NCBI GenBank assembly: GCA_002245135.1
Contig: NGBS01000308.1
Coordinates: forward strand, 62,001-126,000
DNA from: Proteromonas lacertae
Taxonomy: Eukaryota
Direction of reading: 5' to 3'
Length of the DNA: 64,000 nt
Made by a program: the position numbers and the translations under genes. Positions 4,911-54,656 of the stretch are shown here, piece by piece. The notes under the pieces were generated by a model. It saw only the letters and a list, made by a program, of their open reading frames with translations. It was not told the origin of the DNA and searched no databases. Position 1 is the first letter of the stretch, and each line of letters begins with the position of its first letter.

Positions 4911-7900
4911 ATGGAAGATGAGAAAGTAAGTTACGCTCTTCCTGATGCAGATGAAATAACTAATCCTGTAGATGAAGGAGCGTATGGTAAAGTATTTTTA
5001 GTTAAACATAAAGGTGAAGTGCTTGCTAGAAAAGAAGTAGAATTTGATGGAAAGAGTGATGTTATTGTTGATAACACAATTCATGAAATAGAAATATTAA
5101 AAAAGTTGGATAACATAAATGTAGTTAAACTGGTTGATTCCTTTATTGATACTGAAAAAAATAAAGTTTACATTTACACAAAATACTATGAGAAAGGTGA
5201 TTTATGGAAAGTGATAAAAGAAAAGAGAAAGAAAAAAGAAGATTTCTCAATTGAAGTATATGTTGATTTATATATTATATGAATAGGAGTTAATCCATTT
5301 TATGAAAGATTTAATAAATGGATTGAAATATGTTCATAATAAAGGAATTCTTCATAGAGATTTAAAACCTGGAAATATATTGATTGGAGATGAAAATGAG
5401 TTAATAATAACTGATTTTGGATTAGCAATAGAAAGTGATATAAATGGTGTTAAAATAATAGGAACTCGTAATTATATAGCTCCTGAAATATGGCCAGGAA
5501 CAGATAAATATTCTGCATCATGTGATATATTTTCATTGGGTTGTATTTTATATGAATTATACACATTAAGAATGGCATTCAATGGATCTAAAACTGAAGA
5601 AATTACAGAAAAGATAATCCATAGAAGAGAGTTGAACTTTGAAAGAATAAATGATGAAAGAAATGATTTGATAGAAGAATTAATAAAAGGAATGTTAGAA
5701 AAGAACCCGAAAGAAAGAATGACAATGAATGAAATAGAATATAGAATATTCAATCTATCAGAGAATTTATCTTTACAATTAAATTCATCAGCTTATAATA
5801 TATATCAGAATCATTCCCATCCAGATAAAGATGAAATAATGGGATTAAATTATACTGGAATAGATGGGATAATATATGAAGTGAAACATGGAAATATACT
5901 TTGTAGTAGAAAAGATATATTATATGATAAAAGAAATGAAAATCAAATCAGAAATACAATACATGAAATGGAATTATTGAAAGAGTTAAATCATGAAAAT
6001 GTAGCTCAACTGTTTGATTCATTTATTGATGTAGATAAAAACAGAATTTACACTTACACAAATTATTTTGAGAAACGTAATTTAAGGAAAATGATAGAAG
6101 AAAAGAAAGATAAGAATAATTATTTTTCTCTTCCTGTATATTTCATAATATATATTGTATGAATAGGAGATATTCAATTATATGAAAGATTTAATAAATG
6201 GATTAAAATATATTCACAATGAAGGAATAATTCATCGAAATTTAAAACCGAGTAGTATATTAATAGGATATAGAAACGAATTAATGATCAGTGAATTTGG
6301 ATTAGATTTAGACAGTAGAATACTTGATGTTAATTTAACTGGAACACCAAATTATATAGCTCCTGAATTATGGCAAAACAAATCTCCTCCTCTTCCATAT
6401 TCTGAATCAAGTGATATATTTTCATTGGGTTGTATTTTATATGAAATATACACATTAAGAATGGCATTTAATGAAATCGATACTAAATCAACAATAGAAT
6501 CCATAATCAATAAAACAGAGATTAACTTTGAAAGAATGAATGATGAAAGAAATGCTTTGATAGAAGAATTAATAAAAGGAATGTTAGAAAAGAACCCGAA
6601 AGAAAGAATGAAATTGAATGAAATAGAAGAAAAGATAGATCAAATATCAAAATCATTACAACCATTATCTATAGCACTAAAAACATCAGCTTATAATATA
6701 TATAATAATCATTCCCATCCAGATAAAGATGACGTATTTAAGTGTATAGGAAAATGCAAATATGATAAAGTAGTAGTAGCTATACATAAAGGTGAAGCTT
6801 TATCTAGAAAAGATTTAATTTATGATAGAAAAAATGAAAATCAAATCAGAAATACAATACATGAAATGGAATTATTGAAAGAGTTAAATCATGAAAATGT
6901 AGCTCAACTGTTTGATTCATTTATTGATGTAGATAAAAACAGAATTTACACTTACACAAATTATTTTGAGAAACGTAATTTAAGGAAAATGATAGAAGAA
7001 AAGAAAGATAAGAATAATTATTTTTCTCTTCCTGTATATTTCATAATATATATTGTATGAATAGGAGATATTCAATTATATGAAAGATTTAATAAATGGA
7101 TTAAAATATATTCACAATGAAGGAATAATTCATCGAAATTTAAAACCGAGTAGTATATTAATAGGATATAGAAACGAATTAATGATCAGTGAATTTGGAT
7201 TAGATTTAGACAGTAGAATACTTGATGTTAATTTAACTGGAACACCAAATTATATAGCTCCTGAATTATGGCAAAACAAATCTCCTCCTCTTCCATATTC
7301 TGAATCAAGTGATATATTTTCATTGGGTTGTATTTTATATGAAATATACACATTAAGAATGGCATTTAATGAAATCGATACTAAATCAACAATAGAATCC
7401 ATAATCAATAAAACAGAGATTAACTTTGAAAGAATGAATGATGAAAGAAATGCTTTGATAGAAGAATTAATAAAAGGAATGTTAGAAAAGAACCCGAAAG
7501 AAAGAATGAAATTGAATGAAATAGAAGAAATAGCAAACAAAATATCTCAGCAATTGGAACATAAATCAGATAATGTCAGTGCAAATCAGAGAATCTCATC
7601 ATATACATATTCTTCTATAACATCATGTGAATCAGACAGTCTAGCAAGTTTTTGCGATTATAATTTTTTGATAATAAATATATATTTAGAAAATGCTTCT
7701 TTTATAGGTAATACTTTAAAAGAGATGAGTGAAATGAATGAAGAAGAGTTTAAATCATTTTGGAAAGATGATTATATACCTGTATATATGAAATATCTAA
7801 TTTATTATAGGTTTTATTTCCTTCAATTAATCAAGACAATCCTCCATTATCATTAGAAGATTCAAGAAAATTGAAGCTTAATAAATCCAAATTTTCACCT

Positions 7901-10900
7901 TATTTAAGAAAAATAATCAATTTACTTTTGAAAAGAGACGAAGGAAAGAAAATAGAGAAATCATTCATATTTGAATTATACAAATCATTTTCTTTCGTTG
8001 ATGATATTTTATATTCAATAATACCATTAAAAGCTGAAGTATTTCAATATAGTTTAATTTCATTTTAATAGATAAAAGAGAAAATAGAAAAGAGTAATAA
8101 CGAGATAGAATGTGTAGTTCAACATCAAAATGATTATAAAATGGTGAAAATTCTAGATATTAGTGGAATTAAAGAAAAGAAAATATCAAAATTCTATGAG
8201 AATAACTCCTTCTTGTTAGAATGTTGTTTATCCTTCGTCCATCCTTCTAAAATATTTCAATTGAATAGTTACAATGAATATATGATACTATCAAGAGATT
8301 ATTACTCTAGAGATTTAGAAGAGATGATTGAAAGTAACTCCTTGTTAAGAAGTGACATTTGTGAAATGATATATTCAATATGTGATATATTGTTAATATT
8401 GAGCGAATATTATGTAAAGATAAGCAATTTGAAGAGTTCAAACATAATAGTCAATAATAATAATGTTATATTCATATGTGATATGTTTCTAGATACATTT
8501 AGAAAAGAAGAAGATATGAGATTGTATGATATATGCTTTAAACCTCCAGAACAGTTGAATGGATTAGAATGTAATGATAGAAGTGTGATTTGGTCAATTG
8601 GATGTATATTATATGAAATAATTTATAAGAAATTACCATTTAATGAAGATAATCATATCAACAAAACAAAAGAGAATATTATGAGATGTAAATACAGTAT
8701 TGATGTAGAATGTGATGATGTGATGAAAGAAATGATAGAGAGAATGTTAAAAGTTAAAAGTGAAGATAGATTGAGTTTCAAAGAGTTGAAAAAAGAAATA
8801 ATGAAAATGAGTGAAATACCAAAAGATGGATATAATAATTTGATGGTATGCAATGAAAAGAAAGAAATAACCTACAATTATGATAAGTCAGCTATAGTTT
8901 TTTTTCACCCACCAGAATATTTTCTAAAAAGTGATAAATGGAAAAGTATAATTATATAAATGATTATTATTATGATATTTAAATAGAAAACCGAGATGAT
9001 TTAATAGAATTATACAACGAAAGATATAATGTAAGAATTCTTCTAATATTATGGTTGATGAAAAAATATAAAGGATATAAGCCAATAAAAGATCAGTTAA
9101 AATATCACATTCACCACAAATGTAGAGATGGAAAAGAATGTTATTTAGATAAAATTATTTATAATATTTCGGCTGAATATGATAGATATGAAGTTTCAAT
9201 AAATTCAGACTGTATATGTCAATGTGAAGAAGGAATAAATTACTTATTCAAAATATTGAAACTAATTAATCCAACGAAACTCAAATTTGGTATATTCTTC
9301 ATTTTATAGTTTGCTTAGATAATATTCATATGTCAGTTCAATATCAATCATTGTTCGGATTATGTTTTGCTGAATTATCAAATCTACAGGAATTAGATTT
9401 ATACAGATGTAAACTTACTTCTGGTTTTATAGAAGGTTTAATAAAATCACTTCCATCAATGATGAAAATGAAATATATTAATCTACAGTGTATTTATTAT
9501 CTTTCTTATTTTTTTATGAAATAGCAAATCGAATAGGTTCAAAAGGCTTTAAATTATTACTTCCATATTTACATTTATTAATAAACAATAATAATGAATT
9601 ACTTCTTGATAAAATGAATTTAAATGATGAATCAATGATATTATTATCAGAAGAATTATACAAATATCCAAATATTGAAGTAATAGATATTAGAGATAAC
9701 GATAGAATTGATTCAAAAGGATTAAAAGCCTTATTATTGAAATTCTCCATCAATAAAATAAGATTTGAGCCATATGGAAGTAAAGAGTTATTGATAGATA
9801 AAGACATTCCAGAGATAATAAACCATTTCCTGTTAGTAGTAAATTATACAGATTTACAATTATTTATGAGTAATTCTGGAATTAATGATGATTTTTTCAA
9901 ATCATTCATTTCGTTAAGATCAAATGAATTGAGAGAAGTAGAAGAATTTAATTTGAGTAGTATAATTTCACATTTTTCTGTTATTTAGATAATAAACTAA
10001 CATATAAAAGTATCAAAACATTAATTGACAGTTTATCATCATTTCTTAGTATTAAATATCTTCATTTAGAAGGAAATGAAATAGGAGATATAGGAATGGA
10101 ATTGTTATCTCCATACCTATATTTATTAATAGATAAATATGGTAATATTAATTGCTCTAGTATTATTGTTATTTATTTTTATTTAATAGAAATGGGATTA
10201 TCTTCAGATGGATTTATCTATTTAATTGATGGTTTAGTGAATATAAGAAGAAATGAAATTAGACTGGATATAAGTGGAAATAACATTAATTCAGATGGAA
10301 TAGAATATATTATGAATTATACGAAAGAAAATGATAGAATTAAAGAATTAATTATTTACAGTAAATATATATTATTTTTTATATTCATATTAGATAATCC
10401 AATTGGTAATAAAGGATTTAAATTGTTATTAAATAATTTAAACATGTTAGATCATATATCAGAATTAAATTTGAGTAATATATCAATAGATGATGAAAGT
10501 GTGATAATATTGACAAGTAAAATTGATTCACTTAATAAATGTTATACTATTAATCTAAAAGGAAATGAAATGCATATGAATGGCTTAAAATCAATATGTT
10601 CAAAATCATTAGAAAATGAAGAATATCCATTTATAAAAATGAAATGTTCATCATGGACAAACGAAGAATTGGAATATTATTTGAATTATTTCATTAAAAA
10701 GAAAAGAAAAAATAAATATAACAAAGACTATGATTTATCTAGTATAGTATTTAAATGTATAATGAAATAGACATGAATATCAATGATTCTCATATTTCCA
10801 TTATTCAGCAAATTGCTTTTGAAAAGCTTGATTTATCCAACAACAAAATCAGTTCAAAAGGGTTGAAACAACTAATTTGTAATACAGTTGATTTATCTCA

Positions 10901-11416
10901 TAGAATAATTAGTTATACAGTGATTGGATTAATGTATTCTTTACCAGAAAAATCAGAATGTATATCAATAAATAATAATCCAATTGGAGATGAAGGAATT
11001 GAGATAATATGCAATCATTTAAAGGAATTTGTTGAAATAGGTGATTTTCTTTTCCCAAATCTATTAAATTTTTCAAGTATTAAAAAATATAATGTATATT
11101 TCTAATTTGAATAGACATTGGAATGAGTGAAAAAGGATTGAAAATGTTAATAGAAAAATTAAAAGATTATAAACAATTAGATGAGATAAATCTATCAGGA
11201 AATGAAATGAATGAAGAAGAATTGATATTAATGAAAGACAATCAAGAGGTATTTGAGGATTTAAATGCTTTATCAATAACAGTAAAAGAGAATATAAACA
11301 AATCAAAATTAAAATCATTTCTACAAACATTTTCAACAATTAGTTTTATACAGTTGATTGGAATATCAGAAGAAGAAAAGAGAGAATTATCGAAGGAATT
11401 CTTCAATATTATTTAA
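4911..11416 (+). CDS. Large (~2,000 aa) protein: one intact Ser/Thr kinase (NEK-like), three pseudokinase domains, then RNI/NLRC3-like leucine-rich repeats; 14 introns
   Basis: All ORF pieces from 4911 to 11416 join in frame through ~30 nt GT-AG introns (e.g. 5257-5286). Domain 1 has EGAYG/HRDLKPGN/DFG/APE; domains 2-3 have HRNLKPSS/EFG; domain 4 has SNLKSSN/CDMF; LRRs follow the LxxLxLxxNxIGxxG pattern. Confidence 0.85.
5934..7530 (+). repeat. Direct duplication with 898 bp period (~5934-6632 and ~6832-7530) covering a pseudokinase domain and its intron
   Basis: Sequences starting at 6182 and 7080 read identically; the intron GTATATTTCATAATATATATTGTATGAATAG is present in both copies. Confidence 0.93.
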
Positions 11417-12696: not shown

Positions 12697-15042
12697 TTAC
12701 TTATTTTGAAATCTTTTAGAGTATTCTTCAGATAATTTCTTCACAGCATTCTGTGGAGCTTTTTGGATGTGACTATACTCCATAGTAAACTCACCTCTAC
12801 CTTGAGTACACTGTCTCAACTCAATCGAATAACCAAACATATTAGATAAAGGAACATTTGCTGTAATAGTCATTTCACTATTACCTTTCATTTCAGTATC
12901 TCTAATTTCTCCTTTTCTTCTATTTAATCCACCAATCACAACACCTTGGAATTCTTCAGGAATAACAACTTCAACCTTCATTACTGGTTCTAATACTGTT
13001 GGATTAGCATTTTTAAATGCTTCAGAGAATGCATACTTTGCTGCAGTTCTGAATGCTAATTCACTTGAATCTACTGGATGGTATTGACCATCATTAAATC
13101 AATTAAAGAAAAACAGTAATTTGAATGGAAATAATCAACAACAAAAAAGATATGTTATAACAAATCTAACTCCTTGTACTTTATGTCCAGATATTTTACC
13201 TTCTTCCATTGCTTCCATAAAACCTTTCTCTATTGCAGGTACATATTCTGGCAATATATTCAATCCAACCAATTTATTCACAAACTCTGCTCTAACTTCA
13301 CCATTGTAAGGTAATGGTTCAATGTAACCAATGACTTTAGCATATAAACCTTGACCACCACTTTGTTTCTTATATAAATAATTGAAATCAGCTCTTTGTT
13401 GAATGCATTCACGATAATTCACACGTGGAGGTGATACTTCTACTTCACAATGATATTCCCTTCTTATTCTTTCTAAATATATCTGTAAATGTAGTTCACC
13501 CATTCCATTGATTAATGTTTCATTCTTTTCATGATTATAAGTAACTTTAAATGTAGGATCTTCTCTTTGAAAACGTTTCAATGCTTTTGTGAAATTCTCC
13601 AAGTCTTTTGAATTTTTATTTTTTACTGCAAATGATATAACTGTTTCTGGAATATACATATTACTTAAAGAATATCGAATTTTATCACTTGTGAATGTAT
13701 CTCCACTATTACATTCTACTCCAAACATAGCGACAATTTCTCCAGGACCAACGCCATTTACATCTTCCATATCATTTGAATGCATTCGTACTAATCTTGG
13801 AACTTTAATTGATTTCTTTTCTCTTGTATTAACTATGATTTCTCCTCTTTTAAATAAACCTTGATATATTCGAAGATATGTCAATTGACCGAATTTTCCT
13901 TCGTCTAATTTGAAGGCAAATGCGACTAATGGTAAGTTAATATCTGGATAAAGTTCAACCAATTTATTCTTTAGTTTTCCAGTTTCATCATCTTTTTCTG
14001 TTTTGTTTAAATCAAAAGCATTTTGTTTAGTTTCTTTGGGAGATGGTAAATATTTCACAACTCCATCTAATAATGGTTGAATCTATTAATAAATAAAATA
14101 AAATAAAATAAAATATACTCCTGCATTTTTATAAGCTGAACCAACAAAAACTGGTGCAAATTTCAATCCAATTGTTGTTCTTCTTATTGCTTCATATAAT
14201 TCATCATTTGTTGGATCTTCTTCCATTATAAACTTCTCAGATATTGCATCATCCACTTCCGCTAATTTTTCCACTAACTCTTTTCTTTTCTCTTCCACTA
14301 ATTCTTTCATATCATTGGGTACTTCCTTCTCAACCAAATCGTCACCATTTTTACCTTCATAATAAATAGCTTTTCTTTTAATAATATCAATTGTTCCTTT
14401 GAAATTTGATTCTGAACCTATTGGTAACATCACCATTGCACAATTTAAATGAATTTTATTCCTCAAATCTTCTACTACACGATAAGCATCTGCACTTTGT
14501 CTATCTAATTTATTAACAAAACATAACCTTGGAATATTATATCTTCTCATTTGTCTATCTACAGTGATTGATTGACTTTGAACTCCTGCTACACCACAAA
14601 GGATTAAAATTGCTCCATCTAACACTCTTAAAGCTCTTTCTACTTCAACAGTGAAGTCAACATGTCCTGGTGTATCGATAATATTTATTCTATAATCTCC
14701 CCAATGAGTATATGTTGCTGCAGATTGAATTGTAATACCTTTTTCTCTTTCTAATTCCATTGAATCCATCTTTGCACCAACTCCATCTTTCCCTCTCACT
14801 TCGTGAATTGCTTTTATTCTTCCTGTGTAATAAAGGATTCTTTCAGTTACTGTAGTTTTTCCAGAATCTATGTGTGCAGATATACCAATGTTACGAAGTT
14901 TTTCTATTGGGACAATATCCATATTGCTAGATGCAAAACATCGATATAGATATAAACTAGTGAAGCAAGGCTTGAATGGATTCTGTTTAAGTGATTGAAA
15001 CAATGGCTTAATTGTATTTGGTTTAAAAAAACGACCTATCAT
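12697..15042 (-). CDS. GFM1: Mitochondrial elongation factor G1; 2 introns (one GT-AG, one AT-AA)
   Basis: [56 protein letters not shown]-terminal basic targeting-like leader. Confidence 0.96.
13094..13153 (-). other. Putative minor (U12-type) intron with AT-AA termini, 60 nt
   Basis: Minus strand GTT ATA AC|ATATCTTTT...TTTTCTTTAATTGATTTAA|T GAT GGT; removal gives [19 protein letters not shown]; retention gives two in-frame TGA; no AG exists inside. Confidence 0.85.
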
Positions 15043-20113: not shown

Positions 20114-20776
20114 TTATATCTTTTTAGTACCATAATATTTACATATATCAATTATACATGACTTTATATCTTCATATACTTTCACATTGTGTCTTTCAGC
20201 AACTTCTTTTAAATATGCTCTTGCTCTGTTGATATCCTTCAATTGTTTATCATCTATTTCTTGACCATCAATTGTGCATCCTTGTTTCAACATTTTTAAA
20301 ACTAAATATACCTTCCTACCACTTCCTATTGCTTCATTAGCTTCACCAAGACTTACTAATGCTCTTTTAAACTAGTAATTAAGAAATAAATTAAAAAAAA
20401 TATAATTATGATTAAAATGATATGTTTCATCATCAATGCAAAATAACAACGAATCTGATTCTTCTTTTGCTTTTCTTTCGAGTTCAATGAGTTCTTCTGA
20501 CCATTCTTCAACCTATAGACATTTTATATTGCTTATTAAATACTTGTGGATTATAATATGACACTCCATGCAAATCAAGCATTGGCATGGCTATATCTTT
20601 ACGCCATGTGGTTGGATTGCAAGATCCTCCTAAAAATACATTTGGATGTCCTCGTTTGTACTTTTTGTAAATATATCTACCTGCCAACATAGTACCTACT
20701 AAAGCAACACCACAAGTCTATATCGTTAAGACATAATAAATACAATTAAAGTACTTTTATTGGAATTTGAAGACAT
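20114..20776 (-). CDS. Nucleoside 2-deoxyribosyltransferase-like (Raw-type) protein with N-terminal hydrophobic anchor; 3 introns (one AT-AA)
   Basis: VFLGGSCNPTTWRKDIAMPML...YYNPQVEEW...LFCIDDETRALVSLGEA...GRKVYLV...DINRARAYL, characteristic of the Raw/NDT-like family. Confidence 0.85.
20367..20423 (-). other. Putative minor (U12-type) intron with AT-AA termini, 57 nt
   Basis: Minus strand GAT GAA AC|ATATCATTTT...ATTTCTTAATTACTAGTTTAA|A AGA GCA; removal restores IDDETRA; retention gives an in-frame TAG; using the internal AC or AG as acceptor gives a frameshift and stop. Confidence 0.82.
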
Positions 20777-25394: not shown

Positions 25395-26227
25395 AATGTT
25401 TGAAAATTAGTAATGAACGTAGAGAAAATGAAGAATATCATTTTTCTTCGATTTTTTGATAGTGATTTAAATGATGAATATTGAGGGATCTCATCACATT
25501 TTAGTGAAGTTAAAGAATGTATGAAGAATAATAAATGATGAACGTATTATTAATGATTTAAAAAGGATAGGAAATGATATAGAAGGCAGAAATATTGAGA
25601 GATTATTATGATGACTGTTTAAATTACTGATAAATTACATATATAGATTTAATAAGCTATAATAAAGATAAATATTCTGTTTATTTATTGATAGAACATA
25701 ATTTGTCATATAATAGTCATCAAATGTATTTATCAGGCAAAACTGTTTCTAATGATATTAATAGAGCATGATTGATCCATTTATTATATTAATTTGGCAT
25801 GCCAGTTAGTATTCAGTGATTTCATACAGAAGGATGATTTTATCAAATATTTACACAGCATAATTAAAGCATTGACAATATTGTGAATTATGTAAAATAT
25901 AAGTTAGAACGTAATAAAATGAGATTTATTTTTTCTACCTAATAGAGTATTCTCCATATATTTATAAACATATTATTGCATTTTTCTAATTTTTGTTATT
26001 CTGAGGTAGTATAACATCACTGAAACAATCAAGAAAATTGTAAATAAGTTGGGTCACTTTTGTTTTTACCCTATACTGCTCTTTAAAAATACATTCTGTC
26101 TTCTCATGTGTTAATAAGCCGCATTTAATAGTTTTCACAATCAAAAATGAAGAAATTTATAATAATTTCAGTTAAAAAACATTTTTTAATTATTTTATTA
26201 GGCTGTTTATAATCTGTTAATGAAGTG

Positions 26228-28145
26228 ATGTATAGGCACAATAGCTCAAGTGATTACGTAAGTCAACATCTGTACGATTTAAACTCGTCTTCTACACAAT
26301 TTGCTAAATTTTACTACCGTATGCTTAGTCTGTTTATATGATAGTAAACAATCAAGAAATTGAAGCGATTAGAAATATATTTGAGGTTATGAAGGAGTAT
26401 GTCACAGATATTTTATAATATGTAGTTCTGAAAATAATATCAGTTGTTACGATTTTCATCTTTATTTCAATAACGAGGCTGTACAGTTATTTGAGAGTTT
26501 TTTCAAGTTAAGCAGTATATAACTTTTAATTATGATCCTTTAGATGATTATACATTTACATGGAATCAATTCTTTCAGTTCATGGTAATTGTATTATTCG
26601 CCCCACAAATTGTCATATTTTACATGCTACTTGTTTTTAATAGCAGTTATAATGGTTCAATATCAATCGTATATATCATAATTATATTTATTAGAATGAT
26701 ATTATTGTTTTAATAAGAAGTATAAACGATGAAGCAGTAAATCGAAGTGATATTCGAAAAATATTTGATTACTTAGATTTGTATAATATAAATAACATTA
26801 TATATTTATTTATTATAGAAATAAGGATGGTTATTTAACATTAAACCAATTCTGTAATTTCATTTCCAAAAGTATTCATTACTTTGAAAATATAATGATA
26901 TTACGAGAAGCAATAATTGATACAGTATTTCCTCACAACCATATATTCGCAATACTCAAAAGAAAGTTATATATCGAAAAAATCAGAAGATATAAAGCTG
27001 AACATGGTAATGAATTACCTCCTATAAATTGTGTGAGTAGATTGAAAATGTTTTTTTATAATACACCACATCCTTACGAATATAACTATGATTATAATGA
27101 AATTACTGATAATATGATTAATCTACACAGTTTATTATGTTTATTCATGAGAAATTTCATTCCGAATTATTCATTCCAAAAAGAAATTCAAACATTACCA
27201 CCCAAATATTTGAAAATATTTAAAGTGTTTTTTATTATATCAAAAATAGATAATTATTATATTAAGTTCAAAGAACAATCGAGTGTAAATACGATAACAT
27301 CAATGTCAGTATTGAGTCCAATGAGTTTTCCAAGGAAGAAATCGTCTAGTAATATGCAAAACTCAAGATATAATAATGATAATGATAGCACACCAATTGT
27401 TATTGCAACATCAACTAATACAGGAAATACAGGAAATACAAGCAGTACAGGTAATACAAGCAATACATGTAATACAACAAATACAAATAATCAAAAGAGA
27501 GATGGAAAAGGATCGTTAATAAGTTCTAGTGTTAGTATCAGTCAAACACGTCATTGTTCGATATTAAGAAAACCTTCCTTTGTGAAGAAAATGAAACATC
27601 GATCAGATGTAACAAATTATAACACTGATCGAAGTAGATCTATAGTTAAACCAACAGTAGATACTTCTATCAATAAAATGGATAATAGCAACAACAACAA
27701 TAATAAGATTGGAAAACGAAATTCAGTCGATTCTAATTCTCCTTTTATATTAAACGTTGAAAGTAGAGATGATTCTCCCATTTACAGTTTTTCTCCAAAT
27801 CTTCCACCTCCTTCTCTAAGTAATATAACAAAAAGTACATCTGCAAAACCAAATCTAAGGCCTACTTCTACTTCATTGAATATGATTCAAGTTTCTCATT
27901 CTAATACATACTTACCTCCAACATATCCTACACTACGTCCTTTAGCTAATAGTTGTGATGACGCTGGTTTTAATACTACTAGCACCAATGATCATAATAA
28001 TAGAAAGAATCTTAAAATAAATAGTAATTTTGAGAGAAGCAATAGCAGTAATTCTGTTAATTTGCCTGGATTTATATCTCCCTGTGAGACTGAAGAAAAT
28101 CACAATTACTATGATGATGATGATGATTTAGATATGAAAGTGTAG
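26228..28145 (+). CDS. EF-hand protein with long Ser/Asn-rich disordered tail; 5 introns
   Basis: ATG 26228 joins in frame through five GT-AG introns into ORF 26895-28145; EF-hand IFDYLDLNKDGYLTLNQF. Confidence 0.72.
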
Positions 28146-38799: not shown

Positions 38800-41700
38800 A
38801 TGGATCATCGATTTGATAAGCCACAAGTCTGTATGATTATTCCTATTATTTATATCTACATTTTTATAGTAACTCCATACAGATCCCTTCGAAAGTTTAA
38901 AACCTTCTCACCATCTAACAAATTAAATAATCAAAATGTAATGAACAATAATGCTTCTATTGGTCCAGAGATAAATATTCCTTCGTATATTGAAGATGAA
39001 AAAACTACTAGAACGCCAAATGCTTCACCTAATCTATTCCCATCTCCACCTTTTACACCACCTCCTGATAATATTAGACCTAACAAAAATACATCAACAT
39101 TAGAAGAAAGCAAAAAATCATCTCCTGAACCAAATGAAAACTCTCACAAAGTATCAAAAGAAGTAGAAATTAGAAATGAAGAAAGTGTTATTATTAAACC
39201 TCCTCCACGTCCTGTAGTTAATACAATATCATTTATCTCAACACCCAAAATAGAGAATAAGAATAAGAAGTTATTAAGTGCATCTACAAATAACCAAATA
39301 TTAGAATTTTACACTCCTCCACCAAAAGAACAAATAAAACAAGAGAAAATCACATATACATCTGTAGAACCAATATTAATAAAAGAAGAATCATTACATA
39401 CAAATAGAGAATCAAGAGTAATAAAAAGAACAATTAATGAAAGTTATATCAATGAAGATAATGAAGAAATTAACCAAGAAAATATCAAGCCTAGTCAAGC
39501 CTCAAAATATCCATCTTATATTCCATTCAATTGGAAAACTTTTGTAATATTTGCAATTATTCAAATCATATCATTTCTTATTTATACTTTAATAATGTGG
39601 TTATTCGTTTGGTCATATATTAAGAATCATTATAGTATTAGAACAACAGAAAATGGTGAATTATCTGTTAATTCATTATCTATATATAAAGGTGATTTTG
39701 AAGTGAATGATATTTATACAAATGCAGTGGTGAATGAAATGAATAACGTAGAAAAATCCTCTAAGAATCATACATTTACATTGACAAAACAATTGATTGA
39801 GAATAATAAAATCAGCAACAAAAATACCACAATCTCAACAAAACAGGTAGAAAACAGAGAAATGAAGAAATCTTCAAAATCACTTCGTCATAATCCAAAA
39901 ATAGAAAGAAATCTAGCCGTTACATACGATACAACTCATCACTTATCTATAGATCCATCCACAGACGAATTATACATCTCTTCACACAGATTAACCAGTG
40001 ATGAGTTATTAATTGATGGAAATAGTTATTTTAAAGGAAATATTATAATGGGAGATCCATTGAAGAATACAACGATATTAGTGAATGGAAATATTGTTTT
40101 TAATACACATAATATAACTGTAAAAAATATAAATATTGAAAATGGATTAATTTCTAATTCAATGATAAAAGGAAATTCAATTATTTTTGATAGAAATACG
40201 AAATATAAAGTGCCATTTATCAATGATGAAGGAAAATTCGATTTTTTAAATGATTTTATCTATTCGAATGGTATTTTAACAACGAAATCCATTCAAAGTA
40301 AAGAAATAAATAATATTGAGAATATAAACAAATTAGAACCTTCTGTATTACATATCTATGATTCTATTAAAACTACAAATTATTTATTTGAAGAAGGGAA
40401 TAATAAATTTACACTGAATGATGGATTAATATCAGATAAGATTCAAACTTTATTCCTTAAAAGTAAAACTTCAGATCCAATCACATTTGAAAGTGATATA
40501 AGTGGAAATAATGTTAATAAAATATCCAAAATCAATAGAATAGAAGTAAATGAAATAAAAGGGAATGATGAAATAATTAAAGTAAAAAGTGATTTAGATT
40601 TTGGAACTAAAAGTATTAAAATGATTGAAAGAATTGATAATATGAAAGAAATGACAATTGGAACAATTAATATAATAGATTCGTTACATGTCAAATCAAT
40701 TGATAATGGTATTAGTTCTATTGATATGAATAGTGATGTAAATATGAAGAATAAAGATATTAATAATATAAAATCATTATATTCGAATACAATCAATGTA
40801 GAAACACTTCAAAGAGGTAATAGTGATAATACTATTAAAGTGTCAAGCAAATTGAATTTACAGAATACATATGATATTGTAAATGTAAGGGAAATACAAT
40901 CAAATAATATAAAAGTAAATAAAATAGAGAGTAAAGACGGTTCTACTCCATTACAAATAAGTAGTGATGTTAATATAAACAGAATAACAGCCGGAATAAT
41001 CAATACAAATACACTTAAAGCAGAATATAAAATAGATGTTAATACTGTATTTGATATGAATAATAATGATATAAATAATGTAAAATTGTTAAACTCTAAA
41101 GAAACAAATATTAATGAATTACATGTTAAATCTATTGATAATAATGCTAATGCTATTGATATAAACAGTGAAATGAATGTAAAAAAAATAATGAAAGTGA
41201 ATACTATTGAAAGTCTTAATCCCTCTGATTCTATTGAAATAAAGAGTAATATAAAAACAGATCATATATTTTCAGCAAGTAGTATTAAGGTTGAAAGTAT
41301 TGAAGGAGGTGCAAGTGGAAATATTAAAATATCTTCTAATGTTGATATTGGCACTTATAAACTGTCAGTTAGTAATTTGAATATGGGTTCAATTGCTTTA
41401 AGTAATTCAGTTTCTACACCTTTAATTACAGGACCATATTCTGATATTAAAATTAATAAAGATTTGAATTTACAGTCAAAATCTATGAGTAATATAAAGC
41501 AAATAACATCTTCAACACTTAATATAGCAAATCTTCAAAGTAGTAGTGGTTCTGGAGGTAATATTAAAGTGAATAGTGATTTAGATATGTTAAATAATGA
41601 TATTAGTGGGATAAAAGAAATGAGTAGTGGAATAATTAATGTTGGCATAATTCAAAGTAGTGGAATAATTACAGTGAAAGGTAATTTGGATTTATTAAGT

Positions 41701-42114
41701 ATTAATGATATTACGAATGTGAATAATATGAAATCAAATGAGTTGTTTGGTAGTACATTGAGTATTGACAATTTAAAAACATTTACAGGAAGTTCAATCA
41801 ACATATTGAGTGGTATAAATATGAATTCAATGGATATAAGTGGAATAAGCACAATTAGTAGTGGAACAATCAATGTTGGAACTATAATGAGTAGTAGTGG
41901 AAGTACAGGAACAATAATGATATATAGTAATTTAGATATGTTAGGAAATAGTGTTTTACATGTTAATAAACTACAAATTCCAACAGTAATATCTCCAGTT
42001 TCATCTACTTGTGATAAAATAGGAGAAATATATTTTGATTTAACCAATGATAAGATTTATATTTGTAATGGAAGTAAATTTTTGGAATATTCTATTACAC
42101 CTTCATCTCCTTAG
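38800..42114 (+). CDS. Type II membrane fibre-like protein: Pro-rich cytoplasmic N-terminus, TM, degenerate beta repeats, C-terminal Cys domain; 1 in-frame intron
   Basis: TM FVIFAIIQIISFLIYTLIMWLFVW; repeats of the SDLDM.NNDI..I type; C-terminus CDKIGEIYFD...KIYICNGSKF. Confidence 0.8.
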   Translation: MDHRFDKPQVCMIIPIIYIYIFIVTPYRSLRKFKTFSPSNKLNNQNVMNNNASIGPEINIPSYIEDEKTTRTPNASPNLFPSPPFTPPPDNIRPNKNTSTLEESKKSSPEPNENSHKVSKEVEIRNEESVIIKPPPRPVVNTISFISTPKIENKNKKLLSASTNNQILEFYTPPPKEQIKQEKITYTSVEPILIKEESLHTNRESRVIKRTINESYINEDNEEINQENIKPSQASKYPSYIPFNWKTFVIFAIIQIISFLIYTLIMWLFVWSYIKNHYSIRTTENGELSVNSLSIYKGDFEVNDIYTNAVVNEMNNVEKSSKNHTFTLTKQLIENNKISNKNTTISTKQVENREMKKSSKSLRHNPKIERNLAVTYDTTHHLSIDPSTDELYISSHRLTSDELLIDGNSYFKGNIIMGDPLKNTTILVNGNIVFNTHNITVKNINIENGLISNSMIKGNSIIFDRNTKYKVPFINDEGKFDFLNDFIYSNGILTTKSIQSKEINNIENINKLEPSVLHIYDSIKTTNYLFEEGNNKFTLNDGLISDKIQTLFLKSKTSDPITFESDISGNNVNKISKINRIEVNEIKGNDEIIKVKSDLDFGTKSIKMIERIDNMKEMTIGTINIIDSLHVKSIDNGISSIDMNSDVNMKNKDINNIKSLYSNTINVETLQRGNSDNTIKVSSKLNLQNTYDIVNVREIQSNNIKVNKIESKDGSTPLQISSDVNINRITAGIINTNTLKAEYKIDVNTVFDMNNNDINNVKLLNSKETNINELHVKSIDNNANAIDINSEMNVKKIMKVNTIESLNPSDSIEIKSNIKTDHIFSASSIKVESIEGGASGNIKISSNVDIGTYKLSVSNLNMGSIALSNSVSTPLITGPYSDIKINKDLNLQSKSMSNIKQITSSTLNIANLQSSSGSGGNIKVNSDLDMLNNDISGIKEMSSGIINVGIIQSSGIITVKGNLDLLSINDITNVNNMKSNELFGSTLSIDNLKTFTGSSINILSGINMNSMDISGISTISSGTINVGTIMSSSGSTGTIMIYSNLDMLGNSVLHVNKLQIPTVISPVSSTCDKIGEIYFDLTNDKIYICNGSKFLEYSITPSSP

Positions 42115-42236: not shown

Positions 42237-45200
42237 TTATGGTGAAGATGATAATTTTTGTAATTGTACTTTCATCCATTGATTGTTTAAACAAATAACA
42301 ATTCCATTATTACCATCTAAATAAATAGCACCTTCATTATCTATATTACAATCTGATGGTTTATTTGGTAATTTAAGCATTGTACCAATAGTGACTGTTC
42401 CTGATGATACAGTTCCAGCTTTAATCTTTCCATCACTTCCTATATTTATTTCTTTTTCTTTAAGTGTTGAACTTCCTAATGTTAATGTTCCTGCTGATAT
42501 TTTACCATCATTTCCTAAGTTCAGATTCTTGTCACTTAATGTTGTTCCACCTAATGTTAATGTTCCTGCTGATATCTTTCCATCATTTCCTATATTTATT
42601 TCTTTTTCTTTAAGTGTTGAACTTCCTAATGTTAATGTTCCTGCTGTTATTTTACCATCACTTTTTAAATCTAATGATTTATCACTTAGTATAGTGTTTG
42701 CCAGAGTTAATTTTCCAGCTTTAATCTCTCCATCATTTCCTATATTTATTTCTTTTTCTTTAAGTGTTGAACTTCCTAATGTTAATGTTCCTGCTGATAT
42801 CTTTCCATCATTTCCTATATTTATTTCTTTTTCTTTAAGTGTTGAACTTCCTAATGTTAATGTTCCTGCTGTTATTTTACCATCACTTTTTAAATCTAAT
42901 GATTTATCACTTAGTATAGTGTTTGCCAGAGTTAATTTTCCAGCTTTAATCTCTCCATCATTTCCTATATTTATTTCTTTTTCTTTAAGTGTTGAACTTC
43001 CTAATGTTAATGTTCCTGCTGTTATTTTACCATCACTTTTTAAATCTAATGATTTATCACTTAGTATAGTGTTTGCCAGAGTTAATTTTCCAGCTTTAAT
43101 CTCTCCATCATTTCCTATATTTATTTCTTTTTCTTTTAGTGTTGAACTTCCTAATGTTAATGTTCCTGCTGTTATTTTACCATCACTTTTTAAATCTAAT
43201 GATTTATCACTTAGTATAGTGTTTGCCAGAGTTAATTTTCCAGCTTTAATCTCTCCATCACTTCCTATATTTATTTCTTTTTCTTTTAGTGTTGAACTTC
43301 CTAATGTTAATGTTCCTGCTGATATCTTTCCATCATTTCCTATATTTATTTCTTTTTTCTTTAAGTGTTGAACTTCCTAATGTTAATGTTCCTGCTGTTA
43401 TTTTACCATCACTTTTTAAATCTAATGATTTATCACTTAGTATAGTGTTTGCCAGAGTTAATTTTCCAGCTTTAATCTCTCCATCACTTCCTATATTTAT
43501 TTCTTTTTCTTTTAGTGTTGAACTTCCTAATGTTAATGTTCCTATATTTATAATACTGTTTGAATTCATATTAAAATCATTATGAACATTAATTGGACTA
43601 TTTGCAACATTAGGATATTTACTATTTATATCACCTACATATAAAAATTTACTCAATTTCATATCTCTATCAACAATAACATCTGATATAGCACTTATTG
43701 TATTACATATAATTTTGTTAGCAGTTACACTATTTGTTGAAGCATCAACATTTGAATAAAATTGTATAGCAGTAGTATCTTTTCCTTCTAATGATTTAAT
43801 CTTGATTATTTTATTACCATTCATATCAAGATCTCCCATTCTAATTATTTTTTTACCATTCATATCAAGATCTTCCATTCCAATTATTTTATGATTATTC
43901 ATATTAATATCACTACTTACAACAATTTCTTTATTATCAGAGGATTGTATTTCTTTCAATGCTAAAGGACTATGAATATAAATTGGACTAGCAGCTACAC
44001 TTTCTATAGTTCCTACATTTAACTTATTGTTTATAGTAACTGTTGATGCTGTAATTATATTTATATGCATATTATCAATATTCTTTATACCTTTTATATT
44101 TAGAAAATCTAAATCATTGTGAATTTGTATATCTGCTGCAACATGATTACTTTTTAAATGATCAACAGTGATTGTGCCAGTTATTATAATACCATTATTA
44201 CTCATACTCAATGTTCCAGCACTTATTATTCCACCTTTCAAATCTAATAATTTATCACTTAATGTTGTTCCACTATTTCCCAATTTTATTGTTCCAGATG
44301 TTATTATTCCATCAGATTTTAAATCTAATAATTTGTTACTTAATTTCGTTCCATCATTTCCTATTTCGATTGTACCTGTACTGATCTTTCCATCATTACC
44401 CATATTCAATGTTCCAGCACTGATTGTGCCAGTGAATATTTGACCACCACCACCCATTTTCAATGTACCAGCACTTAACTCTTTTATATTATAGATATTA
44501 CCATTAGACATATCTATATTATTCAGTATCTTCATATCACTACCACTTAATACTTTTATGTTATTCACACTTAATGTATTTCCAGATAATTCATTAGCTT
44601 CAAACTGTTTTATTTTTATCAGACTGTATTTATCTTGAAAATTCATATCACTGTTGATCATTATTGAACCACTAGCACCACCACCATTATTTTCGATTGT
44701 ACCTATATTCAATGTTCCAGAACTCATTCTTCCATTTGCACCTAAATTCAATGTTCCAGCACTTATTATTCCACCTTTCAAATCTAATAATTTATCATTT
44801 AGAGTTGTCTTTCCTGATCCTAATTCGATTGAACCTGTATTTATATACCCTGCATTACCCATATTCACAGTTCCGGCACTGATTGTTCCACTCGCTCCTA
44901 GATTCAATGTTCCAGCTGTTATTATTCCATCAGATTTTAAATCTAATAATTTGTTACTTAATTTCGTTCCATCATTTCCTATTTCGATTGTACCTGTACT
45001 GATCTTTCCATCATTACCCATATTCAATGTTCCAGCACTGATTGTGCCAGTGAATATTTGACCACCACCACCCATTTTCAATGTACCAGCACTTAACTCT
45101 TTTATATTATAGATATTACCATTAGACATATCTATATTATTCAGAATCTTCATATCACTACCACTTAATACTTTTATGTTATTCACACTTAATGTATTTC

Positions 45201-48200
45201 CACTTAAATTTTCACCTCCTAGTGTTAAAGCATTCAATACACTATATGTTCCTTGTAAATTTAAATCACTATTGATCTTTATATCATTTCCAGCACCATT
45301 ACTACTTTGAATTGTACCAATATTTATTGTTCCACTACTAAGCTCTTTTATTCCACTTATATCTTTGCTTGTTAGCTTCATATTACCATCTATTGTTATT
45401 GTTCCACTACTACCTTTCATTTTATCGATGTTTAATATACCACCACTTATCTCATTCACATTTAATAAATTATATGTTCCTTGTAAATTTAAATCACTAT
45501 TGATCTTTATATCATTTCCAGCACCATTACTACTTTGAATTGTACCAATATTTATTGTTCCACTACTAAGCTCTTTTATTCCACTTATATCTTTGCTTGT
45601 TAACTTCATATTACCATCTATTGTTATTGTTCCACTACTACCTTTCATTTTATCGATGTTTAATATACCACCACTTATCTCATTCACATTTAATAAATTA
45701 TATGTTCCTTGTAAATTTAAATCACTATTGATCTTTATATCATTTCCAGCACCATTACTACTTTGAATTGTACCAATATTTATTGTTCCACTACTAAGCT
45801 CTTTTATTCCACTTATATCTTTATTATCTACTTTTATATTATTCAATATATTGATTGTACTACCACTTAATACTTTTATGTTATTCACACTTAATGTATT
45901 TCCACTTAAATTTTCACCTCCTAGTGTTAAAGCATTCAATACACTATATGTTCCTTGTAAATTTAAATCACTATTGATCTTTATATCATTTCCAGCACCA
46001 TTACTACTTTGAATTGTACCAATATTTATTGTTCCACTACTAAGCTCTTTTATTCCACTTATATCTTTGCTTGTTAACTTCATATTACCATCTATTGTTA
46101 TTGTTCCACTACTACCTTTCATTTTATCGATGTTTAATATACCACCACTTATCTCATTCACATTTAATAAATTATATGTTCCTTGTAAATTTAAATCACT
46201 ATTGATCTTTATATCATTTCCAGCACCATTACTACTTTGAATTGTACCAATATTTATTGTTCCACTACTAAGCTCTTTTATTCCACTTATATCTTTGCTT
46301 GTTAGCTTCATATTACCATCTATTGTTATTGTTCCACTACTACCTTTCATTTTATCGATGTTTAATATACCACCACTTATCTCATTCACATTTAATAAAT
46401 TATATGTTCCTTGTAAATTTAAATCACTATTGATCTTTATATCATTTCCAGCACCATTACTACTTTGAATTGTACCAATATTTATTGTTCCACTACTAAG
46501 CTCTTTTATTCCACTTATATCTTTGCTTGTTAGCTTCATATTACCATCTATTGTTATTGTTCCACTACTACCTTTCATTTTATCGATGTTTAATATACCA
46601 CCACTTATCTCATTCACATTTAATAAATTATATGTTCCTTGTAAATTTAAATCACTATTGATCTTTATATCATTTCCAGCACCATTACTACTTTGAATTG
46701 TACCAATATTTATTGTTCCACTACTAAGCTCTTTTATTCCACTTATATCTTTGCTTGTTAACTTCATATTACCATCTATTGTTATTGTTCCACTACTACC
46801 TTTCATTTTATCGATGTTTAATATACCACCACTTATCTCATTCACATTTAATAAATTATATGTTCCTTGTAAATTTAAATCACTATTGATCTTTATATCA
46901 TTTCCAGCACCATTACTACTTTGAATTGTACCAATATTTATTGTTCCACTACTAAGCTCTTTTATTCCACTTATATCTTTATTATCTACTTTTATATTAT
47001 TCAATATATTGATTGTACTACCACTTAATACTTTTATGTTATTCACACTTAATGTATTTCCACTTAAATTTTCACCTCCTAGTGTTAAAGCATTCAATAC
47101 ACTATATGTTCCTTGTAAATTTAAATCACTATTGATCTTTATATCATTTCCAGCACCATTACTACTTTGAATTGTACCAATATTTATTGTTCCACTACTA
47201 AGCTCTTTTATTCCACTTATATCTTTGCTTGTTAACTTCATATTACCATCTATTGTTATTGTTCCACTACTACCTTTCATTTTATCGATGTTTAATATAC
47301 CACCACTTATCTCATTCACATTTAATAAATTATATGTTCCTTGTAAATTTAAATCACTATTGATCTTTATATCATTTCCAGCACCATTACTACTTTGAAT
47401 TGTACCAATATTTATTGTTCCACTACTAAGCTCTTTTATTCCACTTATATCTTTGCTTGTTAACTTCATATTACCATCTATTGTTATTGTTCCACTACTA
47501 CCTTTCATTTTATCGATGTTTAATATACCACCACTTATCTCATTCACATTTAATAAATTATATGTTCCTTGTAAATTTAAATCACTATTGATCTTTATAT
47601 CATTTCCAGCACCATTACTACTTTGAATTGTACCAATATTTATTGTTCCACTACTAAGCTCTTTTATTCCACTTATATCTTTGCTTGTTAGCTTCATATT
47701 ACCATCTATTGTTATTGTTCCACTACTACCTTTCATTTTATCGATGTTTAATATACCACCACTTATCTCATTCACATTTAATAAATTATATGTTCCTTGT
47801 AAATTTAAATCACTATTGATCTTTATATCATTTCCAGCACCATTACTACTTTGAATTGTACCAATATTTATTGTTCCACTACTAAGCTCTTTTATTCCAC
47901 TTATATCTTTGCTTGTTAACTTCATATTACCATCTATTGTTATTGTTCCACTACTACCTTTCATTTTATCGATGTTTAATATACCACCACTTATCTCATT
48001 CACATTTAATAAATTATATGTTCCTTGTAAATTTAAATCACTATTGATCTTTATATCATTTCCAGCACCATTACTACTTTGAATTGTACCAATATTTATT
48101 GTTCCACTACTAAGCTCTTTTATTCCACTTATATCTTTATTATCTACTTTTATATTATTCAATATATTGATTGTACTACCACTTAATACTTTTATGTTAT

Positions 48201-51200
48201 TCACACTTAATGTATTTCCACTTAAATTTTCACCTCCTAGTGTTAAAGCATTCAATACACTATATGTTCCTTGTAAATTTAAATCACTATTGATCTTTAT
48301 ATCATTTCCAGCACCATTACTACTTTGAATTGTACCAATATTTATTGTTCCACTACTAAGCTCTTTTATTCCACTTATATCTTTGCTTGTTAACTTCATA
48401 TTACCATCTATTGTTATTGTTCCACTACTACCTTTCATTTTATCGATGTTTAATATACCACCACTTATCTCATTCACATTTAATAAATTATATGTTCCTT
48501 GTAAATTTAAATCACTATTGATCTTTATATCATTTCCAGCACCATTACTACTTTGAATTGTACCAATATTTATTGTTCCACTACTAAGCTCTTTTATTCC
48601 ACTTATATCTTTGCTTGTTAACTTCATATTACCATCTATTGTTATTGTTCCACTACTACCTTTCATTTTATCGATGTTTAATATACCACCACTTATCTCA
48701 TTCACATTTAATAAATTATATGTTCCTTGTAAATTTAAATCACTATTGATCTTTATATCATTTCCAGCACCATTACTACTTTGAATTGTACCAATATTTA
48801 TTGTTCCACTACTAAGCTCTTTTATTCCACTTATATCTTTGCTTGTTAACTTCATATTACCATCTATTGTTATTGTTCCACTACTACCTTTCATTTTATC
48901 GATGTTTAATATACCACCACTTATCTCATTCACATTTAATAAATTATATGTTCCTTGTAAATTTAAATCACTATTGATCTTTATATCATTTCCAGCACCA
49001 TTACTACTTTGAATTGTACCAATATTTATTGTTCCACTACTAAGCTCTTTTATTCCACTTATATCTTTATTATCTACTTTTATATTATTCAATATATTGA
49101 TTGTACTACCACTTAATACTTTTATGTTATTCACACTCAATGTATTTCCACTTAAATTTTCACCTCCTAGTGTTAAAGCATTCAATACACTATATGTTCC
49201 TTGCAAATTTAAATCACTATTGATCTTTATATCATTTCCAGCACCATTACTACTTTGAATTGTACCAATATTTATTGTTCCACTACTAAGCTCTTTTATT
49301 CCACTTATATCTTTATTATCTACTTTTATATTATTCAATATATTGATTGTACTACCACTTAATACTTTTATGTTATTCACACTCAATGTATTTCCACTTA
49401 AATTTTCACCTCCTAGTGTTAAAGCATTCAATACACTATATGTTCCTTGTAAATTTAAATCACTATTGATCTTTATATCATTTCCAGCACCATTACTACT
49501 TTGAATTGTACCAATATTTATTGTTCCACTACTAAGCTCTTTTATTCCACTTATATCTTTATTATCTACTTTTATATTATTCAATATATTGATTGTACTA
49601 CCACTTAATACTTTTATGTTATTCACACTCAATGTATTTCCACTTAAATTTTCACCTCCTAGTGTTAAAGCATTCAATACACTATATGTTCCTTGTAAAT
49701 TTAAATCACTATTGATCTTTATATCATTTCCAGCACCATTACTACTTTGAATTGTACCAATATTTATTGTTCCACTACTAAGCTCTTTTATTCCACTTAT
49801 ATCTTTGCTTGTTAACTTCATATTACCATCTATTGTTATTGTTCCACTACTACCTTTCATTTTATCGATGTTTAATATACCACCACTTATCTCATTCACA
49901 TTTAATAAATTATATGTTCCTTGTAAATTTAAATCACTATTGATCTTTATATCATTTCCAGCACCATTACTACTTTGAATTGTACCAATATTTATTGTTC
50001 CACTACTAAGCTCTTTTATTCCACTTATATCTTTATTATCTACTTTTATATTATTCAATATATTGATTGTACTACCACTTAATACTTTTATGTTATTCAC
50101 ACTCAATGTATTTCCACTTAAATTTTCACCTCCTAGTGTTAAAGCATTCAATACACTATATGTTCCTTGCAAATTTAAATCACTATTGATCTTTATATCA
50201 TTTCCAGCACCATTACTACTTTGAATTGTACCAATATTTATTGTTCCACTACTAAGCTCTTTTATTCCACTTATATCTTTATTATCTACTTTTATATTAT
50301 TCAATATATTGATTGTACTACCACTTAATACTTTTATGTTATTCACACTCAATGTATTTCCACTTAAATTTTCACCTCCTAGTGTTAAAGCATTCAATAC
50401 ACTATATGTTCCTTGTAAATTTAAATCACTATTGATCTTTATATCATTTCCAGCACCATTACTACTTTGAATTGTACCAATATTTATTGTTCCACTACTA
50501 AGCTCTTTTATTCCACTTATATCTTTGCTTGTTAACTTCATATTACCATCTATTGTTATTGTTCCACTACTACCTTTCATTTTATCGATGTTTAATATAC
50601 CACCACTTATCTCATTCACATTTAATAAATTATATGTTCCTTGTAAATTTAAATCACTATTGATCTTTATATCATTTCCAGCACCATTACTACTTTGAAT
50701 TGTACCAATATTTATTGTTCCACTACTAAGCTCTTTTATTCCACTTATATCTTTGCTTGTTAACTTCATATTACCATCTATTGTTATTGTTCCACTACTA
50801 CCTTTCATTTTATCGATGTTTAATATACCACCACTTATCTCATTCACATTTAATAAATTATATGTTCCTTGTAAATTTAAATCACTATTGATCTTTATAT
50901 CATTTCCAGCACCATTACTACTTTGAATTGTACCAATATTTATTGTTCCACTACTAAGCTCTTTTATTCCACTTATATCTTTGCTTGTTAGCTTCATATT
51001 ACCATCTATTGTTATTGTTCCACTACTACCTTTCATTTTATCGATGTTTAATATACCACCACTTATCTCATTCACATTTAATAAATTATATGTTCCTTGT
51101 AAATTTAAATCACTATTGATCTTTATATCATTTCCAGCACCATTACTACTTTGAATTGTACCAATATTTATTGTTCCACTACTAAGCTCTTTTATTCCAC

Positions 51201-54200: not shown

Positions 54201-54656
54201 TTAAACTGTTTAAACTAAGCATTGAAGCAGATATGGTAATGTTGTAATAGTATCTCATATAACTGTAAACAAATGCCCACACGATGAATGTGTATAAAAG
54301 ACAAATAAATAGGACGATAGCAGCTACTGATTGTAAAAAACAAGAATTATACTAAATTTTAAGCACTCTTTACAATGATGTTTCTTATAAGATAAATCTA
54401 CAGGTTTTAAAAACTGTCTATCCATCTTTTCTACAGCTTCTGAATATGGAACTACAGGAGTATAGTCTTTATCTATAAACTCAGGAGCAACACTATGAAC
54501 AACATTGGGTCTTACTGATAAATATCTGCCATGAGAATTATGTTCTTTGACAGTTTTGATAGAATTAGGAACTAGTCATAATTAAAAAATTAATATACCT
54601 CTAGCTATTGGAGGGGGAGCTTTTGGAGAAGGATAAGCCCATTTTTCTGAAGACAT
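42237..54656 (-). CDS. Giant (~4,100 aa) type II membrane fibre-like repeat protein; 2 introns near the 5' end and 1 frameshift at ~43355
   Basis: ATG 54656 MSSEKWAYPSP, two GT-AG introns, TM AIVLFICLLYTFIVWAFVY, 3649-codon ORF; repeats continue after the 1-nt shift to CNIDNEGAIYLDG...IVICLNNQW...SSP TAA at 42237. Confidence 0.85.
42420..43545 (-). repeat. Second coding tandem array made of 75 bp subunits (150 bp pairs)
   Basis: Alternating GTLTLGSSTLKEKEINIG(S/N)DG and AGKLTLANTILSDKSLDLKSDGKIT units. Confidence 0.9.
45160..51960 (-). repeat. Coding tandem array of 29 modules: 19 x 228 bp (type A) and 10 x 246 bp (type B) sharing a constant 41-aa block
   Basis: Constant KDISGIKELSSGTINIGTIQSSNGAGNDIKINSDLNLQGTY followed by A (NLLNVNEISGG...KLTS) or B (SVLNALTLGG...KVDN); periods measured e.g. 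45361-45589 (228 bp) and 51661-51907 (246 bp). Confidence 0.93.

Follow-up and report, generated by a model that had tools for sequence, protein, structure and literature searches.

The NDT-like and EF-G genes and their probable AT-AA introns

On the minus strand of the window, by which we mean the whole 64-kb stretch of DNA analysed here, a gene for a nucleoside 2-deoxyribosyltransferase-like (NDT-like) protein of 182 aa extends over positions 20114..20776. It was modelled with exons at 20776-20744, 20717-20544, 20512-20424 and 20366-20114, and its second exon matches PF15891 (E 2.3e-07). Its first two introns, 26 and 31 nt long, are of the ordinary GT-AG kind. Intron 3 (20367..20423, minus strand) is 57 nt long, lies in phase 2 in a Thr codon, starts with the U12-like donor ATATCATTT (20415..20423, minus strand) and has TTTAA as its terminal letters; its coordinates, strand and sequence had been given correctly in the original prediction, from which this analysis started. 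The U12-like branch motif TTCTTAAT (20378..20385, minus strand) stands 11 nt before the intron end, and the A that presumably serves as the branch point (20379) is 12 nt from the AA end.

The intron contains an in-frame stop, so that simple read-through is impossible. Every A-N dinucleotide was listed as a candidate 3′ end. Excision to the AA at 57 nt yields the stretch DDETRAL and the 182-aa protein, in keeping with the predicted restoration of IDDETRA. It had also been claimed that the nearby AC and AG acceptors give frameshifts. This is true of the AC at 49 nt and the AG at 52 nt (20372..20376, minus strand; 4 and 7 nt past the presumed branch A), but not of an overlooked AG at 60 nt (20364..20366, minus strand), which keeps the frame and gives DDETAL, a product that has lost the conserved Arg.

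The two in-frame ends were compared with the help of homologues. A HMMER scan found 423 relatives of the NDT-like protein at E<=0.001, whereas a word-indexed homologue search with the read-through stretch gave no match. Among the best 150 of the 423 relatives, 145 sequences span the junction. All 145 scored higher with the AA form than with the AG form, and 143 of them have Arg in the junction column. Judged by these counts, it is the AA at 57 nt that gives a normal NDT-like protein. A metagenome scan for the NDT-like gene returned a single locus, 28% identical and without an intron at the site (L001), which is uninformative.

A second AT-AA intron had been predicted, and it was found in the gene of mitochondrial elongation factor G (EF-G; 12697..14922, minus strand; about 709 aa), which has one further intron, of GT-AG type, at 14118-14083. 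The AT-AA intron (13094..13153, minus strand) is 60 nt long, starts with the donor ATATCTTTT and ends with TTTAA. Its branch-like motif TTCTTTAAT (13102..13110, minus strand) places the presumed branch A at 13103, 9 nt from the AA end. In both gene models the AT-AA intron is in phase 2 in a Thr codon, as claimed. Both upstream exons end in AAC (20424-20426 and 13154-13156, minus strand), a mirror of an AC intron end comparable to what AG|GT is for major introns, though seen in just two cases.

Reading through the EF-G intron produces an insert of exactly 20 residues relative to a solved mitochondrial EF-G, and position 91 of Pfam PF03764 flanks the intron on both sides. We listed the 57-, 60- and 63-nt excisions around the insert: a U12-like donor combined with an AN end occurs only in 13153..13094 (ATATC-AA), and no GT-AG excision is among them. 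On this alignment the exact 20-residue insert forces the EF-G intron to AT-AA.

The AG that lies 3 nt past the AA in the NDT-like gene deserves attention as the possible main acceptor, in which case the intron would be a 60-nt AT-AG intron and the protein would be Arg-less. The frame is kept, AT-AG accounts for 50 of the 150 Blastocystis ST1 rows described below, and a relative known from peptide P0002 would have the same AG option, at 43 nt. Apart from the near-invariant Arg, however, the 60-nt AG sits 15 nt from the branch A, past the optimum of 11-13 nt given for branch-to-3′ distance (PMC3584512), it is there only by virtue of the AGA codon used for this Arg, and the EF-G site has no counterpart of it. 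We therefore regard predominant use of this AG as improbable, although it may take some of the splicing.

Comparison with the ordinary introns of the window

The reference set consisted of 53 GT-AG introns curated from the gene-finder output; antisense, long and dubious calls were left out. Their median length is 32 nt (range 25-49), and both AT introns, with 57 and 60 nt, exceed all of them, as expected from the claim that they are about twice as long as ordinary introns. Fifty-one of the 53 end in TAG. The major donors are unusually uniform (GTA in 53/53, GTAT in 51/53, G at +5 in 5/53). The donor pattern xTATC[ACT]TT is found in 2/2 AT introns and in 0/53 GT-AG introns, C at +5 in both AT introns versus 2/53, and the branch motif TCTT(T)AA[CT] in both versus 1/53.

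What defines a minor intron is its donor and branch point, not its terminal bases; where position +1 is A, any last base is accepted (AT-AN). The U12-type donor consensus is ATATCCTTT. Each AT intron agrees with it (core RTATCCTT) at eight of nine positions, the mismatch being at +6 (A in the NDT-like gene, T in EF-G). As counterparts of the CCTTAAC-type branch element near the 3′ end we found TCTTAAT in the NDT-like gene (12 nt) and TCTTTAAT in EF-G (9 nt), matches that the AT-rich sequence makes weak. A at +1 and an AA end, the features of A-type AT-AA introns, are present at both sites, with the in-frame AG alternative at one of them.

The pair could also belong to the major spliceosome, as U2-type introns with A at +1 amid GT-AG introns, like the U2-dependent AT-AC introns that are known (PMC1557818). 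The major donors of the window are close to this, since GTAT, the start of 51/53, is one base off ATAT. U2-dependent AT-AC introns, however, keep a U2-type donor (PMC1557818), whereas the window pair has C at +5 and a U12-like branch motif; these two features and length are all unlike those of the 53 major introns. The same ATATC class exists in ST1, where it is likewise longer than the 30-nt major introns. A U2-type identity is about as improbable as predominant use of the downstream AG. We think it likely that both introns are U12-type introns with AT-AA ends, the AA being assigned from protein homology.

The gene finder permitted any AT-AN intron and gave a bonus for an ATATC-type donor with a branch motif; it chose AA at both sites. 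It returned no other credible AT-starting intron in the window, and no AT-AC intron. The original prediction had counted about 78 introns, of which the two starting with AT both end in AA and none in AC: the AA ends in 2/2 and the absence of another credible case were reproduced, the total was not (53 curated). Three further AT-intron calls of the gene finder were discarded as antisense readings of repeat genes.

Taken by itself, the number of donor and branch pairs in the window (7) does not stand out clearly from shuffled sequence (2.3 +/- 1.8 with a maximum of 8 in 100 shuffles). The case for both introns rests on colinearity with homologous proteins, not on motif count. The five other pairs were rejected as antisense to, or within, reading frames. 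One of these five, at 25580-25501 (minus strand), combines the donor ATATCATTT with TTCTTTAAC and has AC 6 nt and AA 9 nt past the branch-like A. It lies about 100 nt upstream of the INO1 start and could be a minor intron of the 5′ UTR. It is also antisense to a coding-like, frame-broken stretch (25420-26650, plus strand), which has many frame changes and no Pfam match in any frame.

The same intron positions in relatives, and the minor introns of Blastocystis ST1

Open reading frame fragments that start inside a phase-2 intron carry information on its 3′ end: an AA end makes the last codon ahead of the following exon K or N, whereas an AC end makes it T. We used this property with Logan peptides, the only form in which the relatives are known; their junctions are deduced from the peptide letters. 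Over the last exon P0002 and P0151 are 62% identical to the NDT-like gene of the window. Both start with MIKHIFF, the counterpart of MMKHI in the window, which is the +1-frame reading across the donor, and both read YK ahead of RAL (the Arg). Back-translation of P0002 permits D-D-Q/K-T followed by ATATC with T at +6. These peptides would imply an AT-AA intron of 40 nt, or one of 43 nt to the AG. They differ from each other in two residues, both within the intron part.

In the EF-G cluster closest to the window, four of eight members (P0166, P0286, P0287 and P0292) reach into the intron, and all four read VFN before DGQ. From the FFN motif to its 3′ end their intron has two extra codons, and it would be a diverged EF-G intron with an AA end. 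Checking orthologous introns had been proposed, and by the peptides the relatives seem to keep AA at both positions. P0080 and P0320 (43% identical), with N before the Arg, were left uncounted, because the TAG end of a GT-AG intron fits them equally. P0152 has no intron at the NDT-like site and may be a transcript or come from an intron-less relative. For P0153 and P0287 the longest contig is 13,048 nt in each case, a hint that both host genes adjoin in a relative too. In a one-gene tree, the INO1 of the window is the deepest branch of a supported clade (99/95) with a tortoise Blastocystis protein and a cluster including ST1, so that the DNA would come either from a deep Blastocystis or from a sister lineage such as Proteromonas.

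The peptides also bear on the possibility that AC was misassembled as AA at these sites, or that the host genes are dead copies. The assembly is not clean, since elsewhere in the window the reading frames of an LRR gene and of a long surface-type gene slip by one base with no intron to account for it. These shifts are at 57770, 59290 and 59600 (minus strand) and at 33800, 33975 and 35040 (plus strand); they are likely to be assembly insertions or signs of decayed genes. They resemble insertions, however, not substitutions. In independent peptides the corresponding codon is K or N at each of the two sites, where AC would give T, which argues against an assembly error and for conserved AA ends, and both host genes are otherwise open and conserved. 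Errors or dead copies are consequently a very remote explanation, the least probable of those discussed here.

Minor introns had been said to be reported in Blastocystis, and 346 are described in ST1 (PMC5608401). The same source gives all four minor snRNAs and seven minor proteins for ST1, and U11, U12, U4atac and U6atac with minor proteins for both ST1 and ST7. In the ST1 intron list (PMC5608401, S11 Data) 339 rows start with ATATC and none with ATATT, ATATA or ATACC. C stands at +6 in 336/339 of these donors versus 0/2 in the window. We read the intron ends by eye for 150 of the 339 rows (1-90, 151-180 and 310-339): 90 were AC, 50 AG, 6 AA and 4 AT. The AA end is thus present in 2/2 introns of the window versus 6/150 rows of ST1 (Fisher p 0.002, uncorrected and for a window that was itself chosen). 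In the rows read, the branch A is about 5-9 nt from the intron end. AG ends are this frequent in ST1 although a review calls AT-AG disfavoured (PMC3584512). Most of 30 GTATCCT rows seen in S11 Data have the length of major introns.

The window pair shares with the ST1 introns the ATATC donor, the CTT-type branch motif, a variable last base with AA present, and a length above that of the approximately 30-nt major introns. It differs in A or T at +6, AA in 2/2, branch spacings of 12 and 9 nt and lengths of 57 and 60 nt. The predicted consensus shift is borne out by the differences from ST1 at +6 and at the AA end. A clean switch from AT-AC to AT-AA is not: of the ST1 introns read, a third already have AG as their end and some have AA or AT, so that ST1 itself shows a loose last base and the starting point was no strict AT-AC.

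ST1 orthologues of the NDT-like and EF-G genes were not found in the part of the PMC5608401 supplements that was searched. The ST4 and ST7 sheets have no ATATC start among the rows listed; these annotations were made without RNA-seq and say nothing on ATATC introns. The term 'U12' is absent from the main text of a preprint on newer Blastocystis genomes (PMC10690189; PMC12129017), whose supplements may bear on it.

Possible place of AT-AA among the minor introns of the lineage

The minor class is defined by donor and branch point (PMC3584512), and AT-AN introns are classed as A-type minor introns (PMC8280824). They splice productively, and eight AT-AA introns across four species are described in PMC1557818, some of them shared by orthologous genes, as in human and mouse RASGRP4. 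In animals and plants no other non-canonical minor terminus is as common as AT-AA, but all such termini together make up about 4% of the conserved minor introns there (PMC10639083), whereas AA is found in 2/2 cases in the window and may be the norm. Novelty had been placed in the terminus and the consensus. The terminus is already in print (PMC10639083), and what remains is a consensus unlike that of ST1. By its terminal pair and motifs, each intron is likely to be a member of the known rare subtype AT-AA, with the shifted consensus as a variant.

A shifted consensus is also known in Physarum polycephalum, which has donors with T at +6, as in the EF-G intron (10.1101/2020.10.12.336362). There AT-AA makes up 27% of the non-canonical minor introns and AT-AC, with 1,830 introns, is far above AT-AA. 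Physarum has, in addition, massive intron gain and a documented change of U12 snRNA.

The mechanism that we propose is removal of both introns by the minor (U12) spliceosome, with the 3′ end picked mainly by its distance from the branch point. U11 and U12 would bind ATATC(A/T)TTT and TCTT(T)AAT, and the acceptor would be an A-N dinucleotide 9-12 nt past the branch A, so that the nearer AC (4 nt) and AG (7 nt) would be skipped. Under the spacing of about 5-9 nt seen in ST1, the 57-nt intron could be spliced to its AG at 7 nt, and the lineage of the window would therefore need a longer branch-to-end spacing. A/T mutation pressure (window GC 26.6%) may have removed C from four places of the consensus: position +6 of the donor, the base that follows the branch A, position -3 and the final base of the intron; the end is TAA here, parallel to the TAG of the major introns. 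On the letters available, the most likely reading is a drift of the entire minor consensus toward A/T. Apparently AA was favoured over AT, and selection at the protein level would hold the site in place. That AA recurs at both sites and in the relatives points to something beyond drift, although orthologues are not independent cases.

The last intron base is not known to form a Watson-Crick pair with an snRNA; it makes a non-Watson-Crick contact with the first intron base. A change of snRNA for the sake of the terminus is therefore unlikely. The original prediction had suggested compensatory changes, and altered U11, U12 or U6atac might enforce the AA end: C is no longer at +6 in both introns and, by back-translation, in P0002, and in Physarum changes of U12 snRNA match an altered branch motif (10.1101/2020.10.12.336362). 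Yet some of the ST1 introns read end in AA already, and T at +6 can wobble-pair with G. We judge enforcement of the AA end by such changes to be unlikely. By donor sequence, a snRNA change is plausible for +6 and unneeded for the terminus. An Rfam search of the window at both thresholds returned nothing, and thus no minor snRNA there.

How the two introns relate to the rest of the genome can be read in two ways. Both may be real and AT-AA a raised minority, with AT-AC or AT-AG leading genome-wide and the window noticed because it holds two of them, which has about an even chance of being correct. When the ST1 preferences were reweighted to the intron composition of the window, a rough model gave C 39%, G 23%, A 20% and T 18% for the last base, under which 2/2 AA has a p of about 0.04. 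At the 95% level, 2/2 is compatible with an AA share as low as 22%, and windows were selected for oddities. Against a raised minority, both positions appear from the peptides to be AA also in relatives with diverged introns, for which 4/4 AA would give p of about 0.001 under the same model if the cases were independent, which orthologues are not, and no AT-AC intron was found in the window.

The other reading is that AA is the main ending of the lineage's minor introns, which, from the sequences compared, falls slightly short of an even chance. We would say the same, tentatively, of the wider proposal that an AT-rich lineage which adjoins Blastocystis or stands at its base re-tuned its minor spliceosome, AT-AA having replaced AT-AC as the main class and the otherwise near-invariant C at +6 having gone. 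That most of its minor introns would then have the form ATATC(T/A)TTT...TCTT(T)AAT...TAA is a possibility of just the same order. We found no lineage in which AT-AA leads in the literature searched, which was short on subscription papers.

If AA were the main end, the lineage would be a natural test of 3′ choice by the minor spliceosome, made by branch distance rather than by the last base, and a measure of how far base-composition drift moves a supposedly rigid consensus, donor position +6 included. Annotation pipelines restricted to GT-AG, GC-AG and AT-AC would build wrong models of such genes and could score the lineage as a minor-intron loser; on the re-tuned reading, a whole AT-AA class would be invisible to standard annotation. 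If AA is a raised minority, the pair adds two cases to a known rare subtype.

Some long repeat genes of the window are worth recording. An open frame of 3,672 codons (43336-54351, minus strand) contains some 29 tandem units, each 228 or 246 nt long, with only a weak Pfam match below the cut-off, and faces a similar frame of 1,100 aa (38800-42111). At 4911-11416 (plus strand) a gene of 2,039 aa was predicted, with several tandem kinase-like units followed by LRR-like repeats, as labelled by sequence reading; two of the kinase-like units are nearly identical, and their introns are identical.
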